Shown: positions 56,527 to 64,000, counted from the stretch's first letter. The stretch is 64,000 bases of DNA from a virus (IMGVR_UViG_3300025133_000020); one strand, 5' to 3'. Numbers and translations: made by a program. The notes: generated by a model from the sequence alone, not told the origin.

Positions 56527-58011
56527 ATGACAAAACAGAAAGATGGGTTCAACTACCTTGGATTGGAATTCCAAGAGAGATTACTAAAACAATTCTTAGA
56601 GGATAGAAAGTTCACTGAGCGTATAGTCGATATCATCGACCCTAATTACTTCACAGATGACCACTTAAGACTTATTGCGGTTACGATTAAGAATGCTCAC
56701 GAGCAACATGAGGCTATACCTGATGTTGGTAGTTTGAAAATGCGTATCAGCGCTAAGGTGGGGAGTGAGAGTACGCAGAAGATTATAATAGGTCAGATTG
56801 ACCGTGTAGTAGGCGCCAATGAAAATGATGCTCTATTCGTTCAGGATATGGCAGTTAAGTTCTGTAAACAACAGGAGTTAGTAAAGTCGGTAAGAGATAT
56901 TCAGAAGATTATTGATAGAGGTGATTTGGAAGATTATGACCAATGTGCTGACCTTATTAGACGAGCGTTGGAAGCTGGAGATTTAACTGAGGATGATACA
57001 AATGTGTTAGATGGGTTGGCAGAAGTGTTGTCAGCAGACTACAGGAAGCCCATATCTACGGGTATACTGGGACTTGACGAGTTAATGGATGGTGGACTAT
57101 CCAGAGGTGAGTTAGGTCTTATACTGGCTCCGTTTGGCGTTGGGAAGACCACAATGATTACCAAATTGGCTTCTGCGGCTAAAGAAGGTGGTAATAACGT
57201 ACTTCAGATTATTTTTGAGGATAACCCTAAAGTAATCAAGCGTAAGCACTTATCATGTTGGACTAAGATACCACTGAACGAGTTAGCTGATGAGCAATGG
57301 CGACCAAGACTGGAAGAGGAAATTAAGAGGCAGACCGAAAGTAAGGGTACTATCTTGATTAAGAAGTTCTCAAGTGATGGTATTACCATTCCTAAGATAC
57401 GTCAATATATCAAGAAGAAGATTTCACAAGGCTTCAGACCTGATATGATATTATTGGATTACATTGATTGCGTTCAACCATCCAAGGAGTTCAAGGATGT
57501 GTATGCTGGTGAGGGTAACGTGATGAGACAATATGAAACGTTATTGAGTGATTTCGATGTTGCTGGGTGGACTGCGGTTCAAGGTAATAGAAGCTCTATC
57601 GGTGCCGAAGTAGTTGAAGCTGACCAAATGGGTGGCTCAATCAAGAAAGGACAGATAGGTCACTTCATTGTGAGTATAGCAAAAACTAATATTCAGAAAG
57701 AAACGGGCACAGCAACTATGGCAATCCTTAAATCTAGGTTTGGTAAGGATGGTATCATATTCCACGATATTACGTTTGATAACGCCACTATTCAAATTGA
57801 CGTTACTAAAAATAATAGTGGTCAGTCATTCATGCAAAATAACGTAGAAAAAGCTGCCGATGCTCAAGATAAAATCAGTGCTGTTATGACAGCCGTTAGC
57901 GATAGGAAAAGAGAAGAGGATAGAGTGAAGATGGAAGAGGATAGGGTGAAGATGAGGGCTGACGAAAATAATATTGGGGTTGACCAACCTGAGACTGAGG
58001 ACGTTACATAA
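56527..58011 (+). CDS. dnaB: Replicative DNA helicase (DnaB/gp41-like)
   Basis: APFGVGKTT, LLDYIDC, WTAVQGNR, ILKSRFG. Confidence 0.93.
   Translation: MTKQKDGFNYLGLEFQERLLKQFLEDRKFTERIVDIIDPNYFTDDHLRLIAVTIKNAHEQHEAIPDVGSLKMRISAKVGSESTQKIIIGQIDRVVGANENDALFVQDMAVKFCKQQELVKSVRDIQKIIDRGDLEDYDQCADLIRRALEAGDLTEDDTNVLDGLAEVLSADYRKPISTGILGLDELMDGGLSRGELGLILAPFGVGKTTMITKLASAAKEGGNNVLQIIFEDNPKVIKRKHLSCWTKIPLNELADEQWRPRLEEEIKRQTESKGTILIKKFSSDGITIPKIRQYIKKKISQGFRPDMILLDYIDCVQPSKEFKDVYAGEGNVMRQYETLLSDFDVAGWTAVQGNRSSIGAEVVEADQMGGSIKKGQIGHFIVSIAKTNIQKETGTATMAILKSRFGKDGIIFHDITFDNATIQIDVTKNNSGQSFMQNNVEKAADAQDKISAVMTAVSDRKREEDRVKMEEDRVKMRADENNIGVDQPETEDVT
57913..57954 (+). repeat. 21-bp tandem duplication (EEDRVKM x2)
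   Basis: gaagaggatagagtgaagatg / gaagaggatagggtgaagatg. Confidence 0.95.
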
Positions 58012-58026
58012 GATAGGAAAATAATG

Positions 58027-58057
58027 GGGTGGTTTAATGTCGAGCCACCCTATTTAT
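58027..58057 (+). promoter_or_regulatory. Hairpin abutting a TATTTAT motif before gp25
   Basis: gggtggtt...agccaccc stem (58027-58050) followed directly by TATTTAT (58051-58057). Confidence 0.5.
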
Positions 58058-58074
58058 ATTAAAGACATTCAAAA

Positions 58075-58461
58075 GTGGCACAAGGCAAATATATAAATAT
58101 CGATTATCCGTTTAAGGATAGTGACAAGGGGTTTTTACTGCAACTGAACGATACAGATTCAGGGGCGATTAAAGCTGACTTAATGCACTTAATTCTGACC
58201 CAGAAGGGTCAACGGTTATATATGCCTGATTTTGGTACTGATTTAATGAAGTATATTTTTGAACCTAACGATGCTAAAACATTATCGGAGATAAAATTGG
58301 ATATTCAACAAACTGTAAAAAAGTACATTCCCAACCTTACTGTTAACGAGGTTGAGGTCAATCAAGAAACCAATAACGAACACAAAGCTACTATAAGAAT
58401 CGATTATACAATCACCGAAGATGTCTTCGTTGAAACAGACTTTGTGGTCATAAATATTTAA
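58075..58461 (+). CDS. Baseplate wedge/sheath initiator (gp25-like)
   Basis: IKADLMHLILTQKGQRLYMPDFGT.L..YIFEP...YIP. Confidence 0.92.
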   Translation: MAQGKYINIDYPFKDSDKGFLLQLNDTDSGAIKADLMHLILTQKGQRLYMPDFGTDLMKYIFEPNDAKTLSEIKLDIQQTVKKYIPNLTVNEVEVNQETNNEHKATIRIDYTITEDVFVETDFVVINI

Positions 58462-58559
58462 GTAAAAACCCTATATCTCTTTGATATAGCTATGTCTTAT
58501 TGTTTCCACTAAGTCCATTAAATTAGAAAGTTAAAAAAGTTAAAAAAATAGAATTAAAC

Positions 58560-60566
58560 ATGGATTTATCAAGTAGTATTATGTCCGACATTACAGTGTA
58601 TATGAAGTACGCTAAATATGTACCCCACTTACAGAGAAGAGAAACTTGGGAAGAGTTGGTAACAAGAAACAAAGAAATGCACCAACGCAAGTATTCTCAC
58701 ATCGCTGACGAAATAGAAGAAGCCTACAAGCTGGTGTACGACAAGAAAGTTTTACCTTCAATGAGAAGCTTACAGTTTGGCGGCAAGCCAATCGAAATCA
58801 GTCCTAACAGGATTTATAATTGTGCGTACCTGCCAATAGACCACTGGAAAGCATTCAGTGAAACAATGTTCCTATTATTAGGCGGCACAGGAGTAGGATA
58901 CTCAGTACAACGTCATCACGTTGAACGCCTACCAGAAATAAGAAAACCTAACGCTAACAGACGAAGACGCTACCTAATCGGAGATTCGATAGAAGGATGG
59001 GCTGACGCAATCAAAATATTAATGAGAGCATACTTTGAAGGTATGTCAACTCCAGATTTTGATTTCTCAGATATACGTAAGAAAGGTGCCGCATTGGTTA
59101 CCAGTGGTGGCAAAGCGCCAGGACCGCAACCATTAAAGGATTGTGTTCACAACATCAGAAAGATTCTGGATACCAAAGAAGATGGTGACCAATTATCAAC
59201 ATTAGAGGTACATGATATTATCTGTTATATTGCTGATGCGGTATTGGCAGGTGGTATTCGTAGAGCAGCGTTGATTTCATTATTCTCAATGGATGATGAG
59301 GATATGCTTACCTGTAAATTCGGTAAGTGGTACGAGCTTAACCCACAAAGAGGTAGAGCAAATAATTCAGCAGTTATGCTTAGACATAAAATCACTGAAG
59401 ATAAGTTCTTCGATTTATGGAAGAAAGTAGAGGAAAGTGATGCTGGAGAACCAGGAGTTTACTTCTCAAACGATAAGGATTGGGGAACCAACCCATGTTG
59501 TGAAATAGGGCTAAGACCTAACCAATTCTGTAATTTGAACGAGATTAATGCTTCAAATATCACATCCCAAGCTGATTTGGAGAATAGAGTTAGAGTAGCA
59601 GCCTTCATAGGGACGTTACAAGCGGGTTACACGGACTTTCATTACTTACGTGATGTCTGGAAGCGTACAACAGAAAAGGATGCCTTAGTGGGTGTAGGAA
59701 TGACTGGTATCGGTTCAGGTGAAGTTCTTAAGTATGACTTAGCACTTGCGGCTGAGGCAGTTAAGGGAGAAAATGCTAGAGTCGCTAAGTTGATTGGTAT
59801 CAATCCAGCAGCTAGAACTACAACAGTTAAACCATCTGGAACCAGTTCATTGGTTCTTGGTACCTCTTCAGGTATTCACGCTTGGCACAATGATTATTAC
59901 ATTCGTAGAATCAGAGTAGGTAAGAATGAGTCAATTTATACGTATCTTCAGATATATCACCCAGAGTTGATTGAGGATGAGTACTTTAGACCGAACGACC
60001 AAGCTGTTATTTCTGTTCCTCAGAAAGCACCAGAGGGTTCAATCTTCCGACATGAATCACCAATGGATTTACTCAATAGAGTTAAGAAGTTCAATACTGA
60101 ATGGGTAGCTAATGGTCATATAGATGGTCAGAATACTCATAACGTATCGGTAACGGCATCCATCAAGAAAGAACCTGAGATGATTTCTGTTAAGGGTGAA
60201 GACGGTAAACCTATTAAGGGAGCCGAAGGTAAGGTTATTCTTGAACCTAAGAAGGATGAAGAGGGTAATATCATTTACAGAGTCAACGAGTGGGGCGCTG
60301 TAGGAGAATGGATGTGGGCTAACCGTGATACTTTCAATGGTATAGCAGTTCTTCCGTTCAATGGTGGAAGTTATATTCAAGCCCCTTTTGAGGACTGTAC
60401 CAAGGAAGTATACGAAGAAATGAGTAAGTCACTTCATAGTGTAGACCTTAGTAAAGTAATCGAGATTGACGACAACACAGATTTATCTGGAGAATTAGCT
60501 TGCAGTGGTGGTGGCGGTTGTGAGGTAGATATCGACATGTCTTCATTGTTAGAGGATAACTCATAG
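58560..60566 (+). CDS. nrdJ: Class II (B12-dependent, monomeric RTPR-type) ribonucleotide reductase
   Basis: IYNCAY, GGTGVG, GGIRRAA, TNPCCEI, FCNL.E, KPSGT; C-terminal Cys pair ACSGGGGCE. Confidence 0.93.
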   Translation: MDLSSSIMSDITVYMKYAKYVPHLQRRETWEELVTRNKEMHQRKYSHIADEIEEAYKLVYDKKVLPSMRSLQFGGKPIEISPNRIYNCAYLPIDHWKAFSETMFLLLGGTGVGYSVQRHHVERLPEIRKPNANRRRRYLIGDSIEGWADAIKILMRAYFEGMSTPDFDFSDIRKKGAALVTSGGKAPGPQPLKDCVHNIRKILDTKEDGDQLSTLEVHDIICYIADAVLAGGIRRAALISLFSMDDEDMLTCKFGKWYELNPQRGRANNSAVMLRHKITEDKFFDLWKKVEESDAGEPGVYFSNDKDWGTNPCCEIGLRPNQFCNLNEINASNITSQADLENRVRVAAFIGTLQAGYTDFHYLRDVWKRTTEKDALVGVGMTGIGSGEVLKYDLALAAEAVKGENARVAKLIGINPAARTTTVKPSGTSSLVLGTSSGIHAWHNDYYIRRIRVGKNESIYTYLQIYHPELIEDEYFRPNDQAVISVPQKAPEGSIFRHESPMDLLNRVKKFNTEWVANGHIDGQNTHNVSVTASIKKEPEMISVKGEDGKPIKGAEGKVILEPKKDEEGNIIYRVNEWGAVGEWMWANRDTFNGIAVLPFNGGSYIQAPFEDCTKEVYEEMSKSLHSVDLSKVIEIDDNTDLSGELACSGGGGCEVDIDMSSLLEDNS

Positions 60567-61506
60567 GGAAACCTAACAGTTAATAATGAGAAAGTGGTCA
60601 TCCGACCACTTTTTTTTTTGTCTTTTACTTTACTTCACACTATTTATAGTTATAATACTAAGATAAATGTGAAGTGATGAGTAAAAAAATAGATATGATA
60701 GATAAAAAATTTGGTAGGTTAACGGTTATTAGTGAGCATTCCAAAACTAGAAACGGGCATATACGATACGCTTGTGAATGTGAGTGTGGTAACAGTACCA
60801 ACGTATTAGGTACCCATCTTAGGCAAGGTAATACTATATCATGTGGGTGTGCTATACCTATAGGTAAAGCCAGAACTGATTGGACGGGGGTTGGTGAAAT
60901 GTCAGGCGCTTTTTGGGCTACGCATGTGGTTACTAGCGCTAGCGGTAATAAAGGTAGTAGGAGAGAATTACCATTAACGATAACAAAGGAAGATGCTTGG
61001 GATTTATTCTTAAAGCAGGGTAGAAAGTGTGCATTGAGTGGTATTGAATTGAAGTTTCCCGAAAGACATAATGATAGGTCGTGGACAGCTTCTTTGGATA
61101 GGATAGACTCGTCTGAGGGTTACATAGAAGGTAACGTTCAATGGTTACATAAGGACGTTAATATGATGAAACGCACCTACACCCAAGAACATTTTGTTAA
61201 AATGTGTGAATTGATTTCAGATAACTTAACTGACCTACCTGAAGAATCTAGCGTTAGAGGTAAATTAGTGCATCTTGCGTCAATCACGTATTTACATGGT
61301 TTAATATTTGAAAATTTCGAGGATTCGGATATGATAAAGGGTAAACTACAGAACGAATTGAATACACACTTAAATTTTGAGACTAAGATTGGTAATGTTA
61401 ATTGGGAAAATAGTATATTGAGTGGTGATATCTATTACAAACCAGTGGAAGGGGGTGAAAAATATATGGTATCAACGTTTACCGTTGTTAATACTGGGGT
61501 GATAGC
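60501..61506 (+). mobile_element. Homing-endonuclease insertion carrying a replacement nrdJ 3' end
   Basis: The unit is new nrdJ end, terminator, TATTTAT (60641), then the HNH ORF. The old nrdJ end resumes at 61507. The left boundary is approximate. Confidence 0.75.
60591..60619 (+). terminator. Intrinsic terminator after nrdJ (inside the element)
   Basis: aaagtggtc-atcc-gaccacttt plus T-run. Confidence 0.85.
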
Positions 61507-61510
61507 GTAG
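60674..61510 (+). CDS. HNH/His-Me finger homing endonuclease with extra C-terminal domain
   Basis: N-terminal KFGRLTV...CECECGN...SCGC; catalytic-type SLDRIDSSEGYIEGNVQWLHKDVNMMK. Confidence 0.8.
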   Translation: MMSKKIDMIDKKFGRLTVISEHSKTRNGHIRYACECECGNSTNVLGTHLRQGNTISCGCAIPIGKARTDWTGVGEMSGAFWATHVVTSASGNKGSRRELPLTITKEDAWDLFLKQGRKCALSGIELKFPERHNDRSWTASLDRIDSSEGYIEGNVQWLHKDVNMMKRTYTQEHFVKMCELISDNLTDLPEESSVRGKLVHLASITYLHGLIFENFEDSDMIKGKLQNELNTHLNFETKIGNVNWENSILSGDIYYKPVEGGEKYMVSTFTVVNTGVIA

Positions 61511-61565
61511 CGGTGGGGCTTGTGAGGTAGATGTTGATATGAGTTCTTTATTGGAAGGAGAGTAA
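61507..61565 (+). pseudogene. nrdJ: Orphaned original 3' end of nrdJ
   Basis: Encodes SGGACEVDVDMSSLLEGE*, versus the current end SGGGGCEVDIDMSSLLEDNS*; 13-bp exact match ttgtgaggtagat. Confidence 0.9.
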
Positions 61566-61585
61566 ATATAGTATCATATTAAGTG

Positions 61586-61612
61586 AAAGGTGGGCTTGTC
61601 CCACCTTTTTTT
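61586..61612 (+). terminator. Intrinsic terminator (probably the original nrdJ terminator)
   Basis: aaaggtggg-cttgt-cccaccttt plus T-run. Confidence 0.85.
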
Positions 61613-61679
61613 GTGTTCTAACTATTTAGTTTTCGTAAATAATGTGTTAATTGATATTTATTACTAAGAACGAAAAACT

Positions 61680-63500
61680 ATGGCTCGAAAAATACCTTAT
61701 TTTGCCCGAAACTTTGCCGACATTAGAACCGAACTGGTTAATTATGTTAGGCAATACTACCCAGATATATTCAATGACTTCAACGATGCGTCCGTTGGTA
61801 TGATGCTACTGGAATTGAACGCTGCTACTGGTGACATGTTATCATTTCACACGGACAGAATGTTCCAAGAAACTCAAATTAATTACGCACAAGAACGGTC
61901 AAGCGTATTATCAATGGCTCGTACATTCGGGCTTAAAATTCCAGGTAAAAGACCATCAGTAAGTATAGTAGATTTCAGTGTAACCGTTCCAGTATTGGGT
62001 GATACGTGGGATATTAGTTACGCACCAGTAATTAGAGAAGGGGCACAAGTATCTGGCGCTGGAAAGGTATTCGAAACCTCAGATGATATAGATTTCTCAT
62101 CTCCGTTTGCATCAGGTGGTATACCAAATAGGTTAATTATACCTAATTTGGATAGTTCAAACAATATAGTTAATTACACCATAACCAAACGAGAGATGGT
62201 TATTAATGGTGTGACTAAGATATTCAAACGAGTGATGACGGAAAATGATGTAAGACCTTTCTTCGAATTATTACTACCTGAGACAAACGTTATATCTATT
62301 AATTCGATTGTTACACTTGAAGGAACCGATTTTACTACCACACCTACCATTGACCAATTTTTGGATAGTGAGTTAAGGTGGTTTGAAATGAACGCACTGG
62401 CAGAAGATAAGGTTTTTGTTAAAGATAATACACTTACCAGCGATAACACTTCAGTTGAGGTTGGTAGATGGGTTAAGGTAGACCAGCGATTTATTCGTGA
62501 GTATACCGATAATGGTTTTACAAAATTGATTTTCGGTGGTGGTTCCCAAGATATAGGGTCATTATGTGATTTCGATGTTGACGCAGCGTTGGTAAGTAGA
62601 ATCGGGGACTTCATTAATAATCTAAGTATGGGTACAACACCAAGCCCAAGCACTACTATGTTCGTAAGTTATAGAGTTGGTGGTGGTGCCGATACAAACA
62701 TAGGACCTAACGTTCTAACTACAGTTAATAATGTTAATATGTCCGTAAATGGGGTCGACTCAACTATAAATCAAGCGGTTAGAGGTTCATTGGAAGTTAA
62801 TAACCCACTACCAGCTTTAGGTGGTAAAGACGAACCATCAGTAGAAGAGATACGTAACTTAACACGTTACAATTTCGCTTCACAGGAGAGATGTGTAACA
62901 ATCAAGGACTACCAATCAAGAATTGCCTTGATGGATGGTGAGTTCGGGGTACCGTTCAGAACAGGTGTATTGGAAAATCAGAATAAGGTTGCGATTTATA
63001 TACTATCATTAGGTAGTGATGGGACGTTGACTAATCAGTCCACTAGCACGTTAAGACGTAATATAGCCACTTATTTGAGTGATTATAGGATGATGAATGA
63101 TTATGTGGAAGTAACTAACGGTCAAGTCATTAACTTAGCATTCGAATTGGGGTTATACATAGACAAGGAGTTCCCCCAAAGTCAAATCATAGCGGAATCC
63201 ATTAGTCAAATACAAAATTATTTTGATATCGATAATTGGGATATGGGTCAGAACATCTACATGAGTCAACTGATTGAGAATATCAATAATGTTGGTGGTG
63301 TATTAAACGTTATGGAGTTGAAAGTTTTCAATAAGGTGGGTGATGGATATTCCTTGAATCAAATAGCTCAACCATTATTGGATGAAGCCACAAAAGAGAT
63401 TGATTTGGCGCCTAACTACGCATTAATGGGTAGCCCTATAAGTATGTTTGAGATTAAGAGACCTAGCGTGGATATTCGCGTCCGTGTCAAGACTAATTAA
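61680..63500 (+). CDS. Baseplate wedge subunit (gp6-like)
   Basis: RNFADIRTEL..Y...DFNDASVGMMLLEL.A..GD.LSF...YRVGGG...GGKDEPS.EEIR...Q.R.VT..DY; GATATTTATTACTA at 61653. Confidence 0.9.
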   Translation: MARKIPYFARNFADIRTELVNYVRQYYPDIFNDFNDASVGMMLLELNAATGDMLSFHTDRMFQETQINYAQERSSVLSMARTFGLKIPGKRPSVSIVDFSVTVPVLGDTWDISYAPVIREGAQVSGAGKVFETSDDIDFSSPFASGGIPNRLIIPNLDSSNNIVNYTITKREMVINGVTKIFKRVMTENDVRPFFELLLPETNVISINSIVTLEGTDFTTTPTIDQFLDSELRWFEMNALAEDKVFVKDNTLTSDNTSVEVGRWVKVDQRFIREYTDNGFTKLIFGGGSQDIGSLCDFDVDAALVSRIGDFINNLSMGTTPSPSTTMFVSYRVGGGADTNIGPNVLTTVNNVNMSVNGVDSTINQAVRGSLEVNNPLPALGGKDEPSVEEIRNLTRYNFASQERCVTIKDYQSRIALMDGEFGVPFRTGVLENQNKVAIYILSLGSDGTLTNQSTSTLRRNIATYLSDYRMMNDYVEVTNGQVINLAFELGLYIDKEFPQSQIIAESISQIQNYFDIDNWDMGQNIYMSQLIENINNVGGVLNVMELKVFNKVGDGYSLNQIAQPLLDEATKEIDLAPNYALMGSPISMFEIKRPSVDIRVRVKTN

Positions 63501-63551: not shown

Positions 63552-64000
63552 ATGACGATGAATTGTATTAAATGTGGTGGTAAGGTAACGAAGTTTGGTA
63601 AAATAAATAAGAGGCAGAGGTATCGATGTGGTAATTGTGATATTACGTTTACCGATACCTCTTTGATTAAAATTAAGGAGCGAAAGCTTAAATATGAAAA
63701 AATTGTAGATATGTATACCATAAGTGGTATGTCAACAACTGAAATAGGTAAGGTGTTAGGTACTTCATCTACGGTACCACAAAGAATATTAAAAGGTATG
63801 GGTATTACTAGAACTATAAGTGAAGCTAAGAAGGGTAAGTTAAGGGGTACTTCATTACCCACAGATAAAATAATAAGATTGTATTGCGAGGGTACTCCAA
63901 CAACAAAAATAGCTAAAGATTTGGGTTATTCGAAGACTTCTATTTTAAAAGTGCTCATGAGTAATAATATACCTAGAGATAACGAGTATGAATATCACCA
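63552..64000 (+). CDS. Partial Zn-ribbon plus tandem HTH protein, probable selfish nuclease or transposase-like gene
   Basis: Manual translation MTMNCIKCGG...RYRCGNC...MSTTEIGKVLG...TTKIAKDLGYSKTSI, open to the window end; TATTTAT at 63536. Confidence 0.6.
   Translation, partial: MTMNCIKCGGKVTKFGKINKRQRYRCGNCDITFTDTSLIKIKERKLKYEKIVDMYTISGMSTTEIGKVLGTSSTVPQRILKGMGITRTISEAKKGKLRGTSLPTDKIIRLYCEGTPTTKIAKDLGYSKTSILKVLMSNNIPRDNEYEYH

Follow-up and report, generated by a model that had tools for sequence, protein, structure and literature searches.

The question raised by this locus is why the 3' end of one gene should occur twice. The window, by which we mean the whole stretch of 64,000 nucleotides (nt) analyzed here from the virus IMGVR_UViG_3300025133_000020, encodes a class II ribonucleotide reductase (RNR) in the gene nrdJ. 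The gene ends in a full tail, and a second version of this tail lies directly behind an open reading frame (ORF) of HNH type that follows it. From sequence comparison we consider it highly probable that a free-standing HNH cassette of ~1.0 kb invaded nrdJ between the codons of its two C-terminal redox cysteines and brought a replacement tail along. Such a cassette would comprise a foreign nrdJ tail including its stop, followed by a terminator, a phage promoter embedded in a hairpin and the HNH ORF. In the following, nrdJ loci with and without the cassette are called occupied and empty alleles, respectively, and the parts of the locus on which the argument depends are these (window coordinates):

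58560-60566, + strand: nrdJ, whole ORF of 668 amino acids (aa), ending ...GELAC SGGGGCEVDIDMSSLLEDNS, with its TAG stop at 60564-60566.
58560-60503, + strand: nrdJ body through the first C-terminal redox Cys codon (60501-60503), with 85% nt identity to the empty allele L149.
60504-60566, + strand: replacement nrdJ 3' end, read as foreign (SGGGGCEVDIDMSSLLEDNS plus TAG), in frame and with both cysteines kept, as CX5C.
60588-60625, + strand: terminator 1, assigned to the cassette, a stem-loop at 60588-60615 (12-bp stem) plus a T run, from a terminator scan.
60630-60677, + strand: hairpin enclosing a putative promoter, with TATTTAT at 60642-60648 and a sigma70-like TTTACT-16-TATAAT at 60629-60656, from a promoter scan.
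60677-61510, + strand: putative HNH homing-endonuclease ORF, 277 aa, with its ATG at 60677 (alternative GTG at 60674), assigned by PHROG matches and predicted fold.
61509-61565, + strand: native nrdJ 3' end, a remnant with neither promoter nor start codon (SGGACEVDVDMSSLLEGE plus TAA); from ~61507 (GTAG) onward the sequence is homologous to empty alleles.
61566-61679, + strand: native 3' untranslated region (3'UTR), terminator 2 (61585-61609 plus a T run, from a terminator scan) and gp6 promoter region, colinear with empty alleles.

An initial annotation, made from the sequence of the window alone, had described this arrangement: an nrdJ end of the form ...ELAC-tail followed by a terminator, a second tail copy with its own terminator right after the HNH ORF, and an endonuclease stop codon formed at the junction between the two. 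All three features are present; the HNH stop (TAG, 61508-61510) shares two bases with the first codon of the remnant (AGC, 61509-61511), the remnant and the HNH ORF being in different reading frames. The two tail copies are much more alike than chance would allow. When 11 kb were scanned in all six frames with the last 16 aa of NrdJ, the top hit other than nrdJ itself was the remnant, 11 nt past the HNH stop (BLOSUM62 score 59 vs. 25 for the next place), and at the DNA level the two tails reach a score of 38, compared with a maximum of 30 among 200 shuffles.

The upstream gene is complete as it stands. Its product is a B12-dependent class II enzyme of the RTPR type (PHROG 367, E 2e-114; TIGR02505 RTPR, E 5e-72, which is under the curated cut-off; Pfam match RNR-II_ins_dom). 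In a phmmer alignment its ACSGGGGC is placed on DCEGG-AC, residues 731-736, of the Lactobacillus leichmannii RTPR (PDB 1L1L), so that the NrdJ cysteines correspond to the pair C731/C736 (CEGGAC) of that enzyme, and the one-residue gap in the HMMER alignment makes the working tail CX5C instead of CX4C. In the L. leichmannii RTPR, the C-terminal Cys pair shuttles reducing equivalents to the active site. As far as can be judged from its sequence, nrdJ is kept complete without splicing, as the initial annotation had proposed: its 668 codons run uninterrupted, through both tail cysteines, to the stop and terminator. A CX3-5C pair is likewise kept in all occupied nrdJ alleles.

This completeness also bears on an origin by splicing elements, in which the remnant would be the true last exon and either the 1-kb insert would be a group I intron or the HNH would belong to an intein. 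The remnant does begin right after the first cysteine, at what could be an exon junction, and inteins occur in related nrdJ genes (P0062, P0084, P0088, proteins of ~1000 aa). Yet nrdJ is already complete, in frame through a full homologous tail to stop and terminator, the HNH gene forms an ORF by itself, preceded by a promoter-like site and in another frame than the remnant, and no Rfam intron family was matched at E<=1, the Rfam search giving only two sub-threshold chance hits. An intron or intein is thus scarcely credible here.

Which of the two copies is native can be read from relatives. Among the INPHARED phages no close relative of the window was found at the DNA level, the nearest NrdJ there being that of Microcystis phage Mel-JY01 (64%). 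The comparison draws on hundreds of related nrdJ loci in IMG/VR and on one protein, P0007, from a search of a large protein collection. On the + strand of the window, a DnaB-like helicase gene is followed by a gp25-like gene, nrdJ, the HNH-type ORF and a gp6-like baseplate wedge gene, the two flanking genes of importance here being:

58075-58461, + strand: gp25-like gene, 3' of the DnaB-like helicase gene and followed by nrdJ.
61680-63500, + strand: gp6-like baseplate wedge gene (PHROG 219, 10646), the right neighbor of nrdJ in the empty alleles L001 and L149.

The closest nrdJ in IMG/VR (L001, 91% aa identity) lies in the order gp25-nrdJ-gp6, without an HNH gene, and ends ...ACGGGACEVDVDITELLK at its stop. 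P0007 (667 aa) is encoded on contigs L149 and L150; it shares 91% identity with the window over residues 500-668 of NrdJ, and its end reads ...ELACSGGACEVDVDMSSLLEDES. Both contigs, at 85% nt identity to the window, have gp25-nrdJ-gp6 with the HNH gene absent. In L149, the nrdJ end ...ACSGGACEVDVDMSSLLEDES is followed by a 3'UTR of the remnant type, a terminator and gp6. Empty alleles of this kind had been predicted, and with L149/L150 and L001 they were found, the tail of L149 being of the remnant type. Together with the native remnant, these cassette-free relatives support the proposed insertion of an element at the C-terminal redox Cys pair.

Two segments of the window, 56931-60556 and 61507-63500, both align to L149 (85%), and they overlap there on the same 52 nt (L149 3573-3624); both tail copies also map to one and the same stretch of L001. 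The blastn alignment resumes at 61507 against L149 and at 61512 against L001, and beyond the remnant the region 61566-61679 can be aligned base for base with the post-nrdJ region of L149, L150 and L001, terminator 2 and the gp6 upstream region being nearly identical in L001. No counterpart of terminator 1 was found in L149, L150 or L001, and a terminator stands at its place in every occupied relative. Because both copies fall on the same 52 nt of L149, and because 3'UTR and terminator are shared with it, the remnant is the native end, and the working tail, terminator 1, the promoter and the HNH ORF form the insert. The base differences agree: compared with L149 over 18 codons, the remnant has substitutions at 11 of 54 nt, one of them non-synonymous, which equals the genome-wide level, and its tail is identical in 16 of 16 aa. 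In the working tail 16-17 of 54 nt are different, 11-12 codons being changed synonymously, and 3 nt are inserted; its nt similarity to L149 is 69% vs. 80% for the remnant. In terms of sequence, these comparisons establish the upstream in-frame tail as foreign and the downstream copy, with everything 3' of the remnant, as native.

The converse assignment would make the working CSGGGGC tail native and the downstream copy foreign, the HNH gene having landed just after an intact nrdJ, flanked on its right by a piece of nrdJ end from the donor. Tails of the CGGGGCEVDIDM type do occur in HNH-less phages (L151), and the last residues of the two tails in the window (MSSLLE) are closer to each other than to L001. 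We nevertheless hold this assignment to be very improbable, as L149, L150 and L001 run colinear, at genome-wide identity, with the remnant, its 3'UTR, terminator 2 and the region of the gp6 promoter, the promoter following terminator 1 is, like terminator 1 itself, without a counterpart in them, and the tail of L149 equals the remnant and not the working tail. No close HNH-less relative was found in which a CSGGGGC tail is followed by terminator 1, and the in-frame remnant of another occupied locus, L083, also matches the tails of its HNH-less kin. The initial annotation had named a GGGG-type end in HNH-less relatives as one observation that would speak against it. None of the close HNH-less relatives has a C-S-GGGG-C tail; the distant HNH-less L151 ends in C-GGGG-CEVDIDM, so that "GGGG" as such is not exclusive to occupied alleles.

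At 8 of 18 codons the two copies in the window differ synonymously, which argues that they diverged under selection, as functional ends in separate genomes, before they were joined. Had slippage or illegitimate recombination duplicated the nrdJ end in place, independently of homing and with the HNH gene landing later, the opposite would be expected, since copies made in situ start identical and the dead one drifts. Here the differences are mainly synonymous, and it is the dead copy that agrees with relatives. Against both this origin and a vertically inherited relic with an immobile HNH, the layout recurs at nrdJ genes that are ~30% identical and at two other genes, it is patchy among close relatives, with empty and occupied forms in one sample, and the HNH ORF is intact with all family-invariant residues. 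In favor of a duplication or relic, the remnant lacks the last codon of the L149 tail, so that the event is not very recent, and the HNH of the window stops at the junction and does not read into the remnant. On balance we regard these two origins, taken together, as improbable.

The window sequence occurs in marine metagenomes. The sample in question is run X2, a second marine metagenome that differs in sample and study from the likely source and in which contigs with an identical HNH gene occur alongside a ~88-91% alike contig that joins 60513 to 61584 and skips the cassette; these data are assembled contigs, from which allele frequencies are unreadable. Occupied and empty relatives thus live together, which is the situation required by homing. 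Patchy presence, colinear relatives and a fixed site between the Cys codons, as expected of a free-standing homing gene, were all observed for this element. As to gene-end replacement, the sequences indicate two tail copies flanking the ORF, a foreign one upstream and a native one downstream, and a target gene that is complete.

Less can be said about the donor. When IMG/VR was searched with a degenerate DNA pattern for CSGGGGCEVDIDM, no copy turned up. L151, with its CGGGGCEVDIDM tail and no HNH gene, possibly represents a donor-type lineage, and the promoter region of the cassette behind terminator 1 resembles the nrdJ-gp25 intergenic region of L151, a type of phage with another gene order, a resemblance that hints at the kind of donor. 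The left border of the replacement in nrdJ is a homologous crossover, the exact position of which is not placeable.

The HNH ORF matches PHROG 3322, 374, 1035 and 3118, all HNH endonuclease or endonuclease VII, with E values from 5e-21 to 2e-10, those of 3322 and 374 being ~1e-20, and its homologues are annotated as HNH endonucleases in hundreds of cultured phages; a sequence search against the PDB returned nothing. Three modules can be proposed for its product:

Residues ~9-59, + strand: predicted N-terminal CxC...CxC zinc-finger DNA-binding module, with a weak Pfam CapR match.
Residues ~95-185, + strand: predicted PacI-like beta-beta-alpha-Me nuclease core (AlphaFold, VIA-align).
Residues ~184-277 (61226-61507), + strand: C-terminal extension with a predicted gp25 fold (VIA-align of the AlphaFold model).

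In an alignment of 23 homologues, the N-terminal CxC...CxC is invariant, as is the block S..R..S..GY...N....HK..N.MK (S139, R142, S145, G148, Y149, N153, H158, K159, N162), and the ORF of the window is intact, with all of these residues present. The AlphaFold model (pLDDT 82) places strands at 138-142 and 154-158 and a helix at 159-167, forming a beta-beta-alpha unit, and its best Foldseek match is the PacI HNH (probability 1.0, E 9e-3). When residues 59-188 were compared with known folds by VIA-align, PacI reached Z 8.6 (20% identity), Gme HNH Z 7.1 and McrA Z 5.1. The model thus predicts a beta-beta-alpha-metal core like that of PacI and other small HNH nucleases, from which the window HNH differs by its extra gp25-fold domain and by lacking the first His. 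The CxC...CxC module resembles, weakly, the CapR-type zinc-finger DNA-binding domains of phage homing endonuclease genes (HEGs; PMC10448857).

The predicted fold of residues 183-277 resembles T4 gp25 and the KP1 baseplate (Z 9.3-10.3, VIA-align). Within the family this extension occurs only in the window, in L081/L082 and in P0002, and it also exists as stand-alone ORFs of 86-91 aa (P0003-P0006) in arrays of small phage genes. The corresponding profile-profile match to gp25 is weak (probability 18%), and BLASTP of the extension against the gp25 of the window gave nothing. An origin as a sheath remnant was considered on account of a weak similarity to the C-terminus of the window sheath protein (3 of 2000 shuffles reach the score) and was rejected: the extension has no Pfam sheath match, there is no sheath gene near its homologues, and a sheath protein reaches Z 4.8 compared with 9.3-10.3 for the gp25-like folds.

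Expression of the HNH gene may be tied to the promoter within the cassette. The hairpin at 60630-60677 has a folding energy of -15.4 kcal/mol (z -3.8; 1 of 200 shuffles is as good), its 3' arm masks the 9 nt before the HNH start plus the A of the ATG, and TATTTAT lies in its loop. It is conserved in L083, L008, L027 and L058, with 88% of cells paired vs. 28-45% in slid controls and two compensatory pairs, a covariation which is not statistically strong for seven sequences; in L113 a different stem is found at this position. TATTTAT very probably is a promoter element of this phage, judging by its distribution: 14 of 41 long ORFs on the + strand, and 3 of 8 on the - strand, have it 10-60 nt upstream of their ATG. 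With 30 copies on the + strand, about one would by arithmetic be expected at such positions. The genes preceded by it include the sheath, gp6, other structural genes and the HNH; besides 60642-60648, sites lie at 61655-61661 (25 nt before the gp6 ATG) and upstream of 29839, 5418 and 39650. Of the "late promoter" that the initial annotation saw in the element, the promoter-like motif common to structural genes is borne out, and "late" is plausible from the kind of genes that it precedes. TATTTAT is also reminiscent of the T4 late TATAAATA; the longer motif ACTATTTAKW is not enriched in the window. A promoter within a hairpin that masks the ribosome-binding site has been described for T4 I-TevI and segB and for Aeh1 mobE (PMC2988022), and by analogy transcripts reading through from nrdJ would not be translated into HNH.

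The layout is not confined to the window. An HNH gene lies directly 3' of nrdJ in 34 of the 67 IMG/VR loci with an HNH homologue, and the NrdJ proteins concerned are 24-80% identical to that of the window. The window and 11 relatives, 12 loci in all, have their best six-frame match to the NrdJ tail at -32 to +11 nt relative to the HNH stop (scores 33-59, background 21-29); with L083 and L110, a native-tail remnant is present at the HNH 3' end in at least 14 loci. The insertion junction always lies within one or two codons past the first cysteine. In most of the loci with a remnant (lineages L090, L092, L094-96, L105, L107, L146, L083) the HNH ORF lacks a separate stop and runs in frame into the native tail, as in the example of an HNH ending ...G-GSCEIVDLT beside an nrdJ ending ACVGSCEIVDLS, each at its stop. 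The HNH of L083 ends ...NN-AGGCEITTV beside a foreign nrdJ end SCGGNGCEIV, and its remnant and downstream region match the HNH-less kin L012 and L007 (ACGAGGCEVTTA before the stop), which constitutes a second pair of occupied and empty alleles. In three occupied loci, L008, L027 and L058, the right junction lies at the nrdJ stop; L027 and L058 have the common tail CANGSCE, unlike the CAGGACEIV of HNH-less kin, which fits co-conversion.

Other genes are affected as well. In L117 (2972-4558) the HNH ends ...GGPSQSLAF, like the upstream vWA-like gene (257 aa), with nearly all codons synonymously different, and in L128 (335-1194), L129 and L142-144 (L142 1877-2627) it ends ...KxKW, like an upstream gene of ~95 aa, which in the L128/L142 group encodes a basic protein ending ...AAYWS.R.KW. 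Going by their sequences, these two further target genes show the same gene-end layout as nrdJ, the HNH ORFs ending in frame in a recoded version of the upstream tail.

We propose the following course of events. At co-infection, the HNH nuclease would recognize the conserved A-C-x-G-G-x-C-E codons in HNH-less phages and cut there, and the break would be repaired from the occupied genome, with the nrdJ body as the left homology arm and the leftover native tail plus whatever follows as the right one. The recipient would thereby gain the cassette with a working replacement tail, and its own tail would be left behind as a remnant. The carried tail is recoded synonymously, in this case with one additional Gly codon, which may protect the occupied allele from being cut again and may also lower the rate of deletion by recombination between the two copies. 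The hairpin would restrict translation of HNH to transcripts from the internal promoter, as in T4 I-TevI, segB and Aeh1 mobE. That the extra Gly confers immunity is only a guess from the sequence; it would shift the register of the downstream half-site.

Several observations weigh against parts of this account. The ORF has no HNH-family match in Pfam, and likewise none in NCBIfam, and the first His of the canonical HNH motif is absent, the motif being LDRID...N...H-K..N. A clear co-conversion tract 5' of the tail was not detected by sliding identity against L001 and L149. Some occupied loci (L008, L027, L058, L084-89) are without a remnant, from which it follows that tail duplication is frequent and not obligatory, and many of the loci are related to each other, so that independent insertions are fewer than loci. 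The extra Gly is not common to most occupied alleles (L081, L083, L027, L008), most of which are CX4C, and HNH-less alleles with CX5C (L045, L062) or with CGGGGC at the normal CX4C spacing (L151) exist.

A wider reading extends the invasion of nrdJ by a tail-carrying cassette to the whole family. In it, these phage nucleases, combining a zinc finger with a PacI-like HNH core, are specialized for a "home-and-rescue" invasion of gene 3' ends, and we would give this extension an even chance. An element without its own stop codon would enter a few codons into a conserved tail, in frame, and read out through the native tail; recoded tail, terminator and promoter would be carried along, and the leftover tail would serve as the right homology arm. 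If this is true, a family element could home into any genome with the target gene, whatever lies downstream, and the spread across phages with NrdJ just ~30% identical would be explained. The family target in nrdJ would then be the codons of the redox Cys pair, and the variation of residues between the cysteines in occupied alleles would be the footprint of an arms race over target-site immunity.

The closest precedents are found in fungal mitochondria, where hybrid genes created by mobile endonuclease ORFs (mORFs) have been reported for atp6 of Allomyces macrogynus, atp6, atp9, cox2 and nad3 of Glomus sp., atp9 of Rhizopus and cox2 of Mortierella (PMC3630166 and references therein). There, too, an ORF lies between two copies of the C-terminal end of the target gene, of which the upstream one is foreign and mainly synonymously diverged and the downstream, native one matches an element-free close relative; ORF and native tail often share one reading frame, and the target gene is functional without splicing (PMC3630166). 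The fungal ORFs encode LAGLIDADG or GIY-YIG enzymes, unlike the zinc finger plus HNH found here in a double-stranded DNA phage (PMC3630166). The phage cassette also differs by its own terminator and hairpin-embedded promoter, a module which the fungal elements do not have, by its target, the redox Cys pair of a class II RNR, and by the occurrence of one family at many divergent nrdJ genes as well as at other genes.

Among phages, the free-standing T4-type HEGs (SegA-G, MobA-E) spread by "intronless homing" and reside in or near essential genes, including those for RNR (PMC2988022, PMC2790892). Their features include spread by double-strand-break repair, co-conversion of flanks and protection of occupied alleles by target differences (PMC2988022, PMC2790892), and their expression is controlled, as is proposed for the HNH of the window, by a late promoter within an RNA hairpin in which the ribosome-binding site is concealed (PMC2988022). 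Seg and Mob genes lie between genes or split a gene into two polypeptides (Aeh1 nrdA, T4 gene 60/39), whereas the cassette of the window lies inside a coding sequence, is neutralized by the tail that it carries, and leaves no split protein. In function it resembles engineered home-and-rescue (HomeR) and cleave-and-rescue drives, which cut a conserved site of an essential gene and supply a recoded, cleavage-resistant 3' end; those are synthetic Cas9 systems in insects, and the resemblance is functional only (PMC7968924). The literature searched, the coverage of which is incomplete and no proof of absence, describes neither a phage HEG that replaces the end of a gene nor an HNH located at the Cys pair of nrdJ.

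The invasion of nrdJ by such a cassette would mean that phage homing endonucleases can colonize the interior of an essential coding sequence without intron, intein or split protein, by means of a carried gene end. It would be a natural counterpart of engineered home-and-rescue drives, so far documented mainly in fungal mitochondria, and it offers a testable pair of enzyme and target, as empty and occupied alleles are both known. It would also explain orphan gene-tail fragments and odd HNH C-terminal extensions in the annotation of phage genomes, and would point to homing endonucleases as a source of diversity in the redox tail of class II RNRs, a part critical to their function. In phage phylogenies the C-terminus of NrdJ may be chimeric, which calls for caution.

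Further observations concern the surroundings of nrdJ and its family. Related NrdJ proteins of 966-1019 aa exist (P0062, P0067, P0080, P0084, P0088), and precomputed Pfam assignments list intein/LAGLIDADG domains in P0062, P0084 and P0088, which indicates that the nrdJ family has also been invaded by inteins. The gene order gp25-nrdJ-gp6 is found in the window, L001, L149 and L081, and most relatives (L002-L080, L151) have nrdJ-(small ORFs)-gp25-gp6. In L081, gp25 and gp6 are 76-78% identical to those of the window, yet the nrdJ at the same place is just 36% identical, which points to replacement of the whole gene. In L110 (1387-2730), HNH and gp25 are separated by ~440 nt of non-coding DNA, the native remnant of the nrdJ tail (GGACEVDVDIKALSN) and a GIY-YIG-like endonuclease gene with a frameshift, suggesting that several HEGs have piled up at the nrdJ-gp25 junction. 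A second endonuclease gene follows gp6 in the window (63552-64000, running off the end) and encodes a zinc ribbon, helix-turn-helix repeats and a C-terminal HNH. Its homologue in L081 (6905-7801) is 70% identical and ends ...KPINL, which is not a gp6 tail; after gp6 of L001 and L149 the gene is absent, and this pattern of presence and absence marks it as a second patchy HEG.

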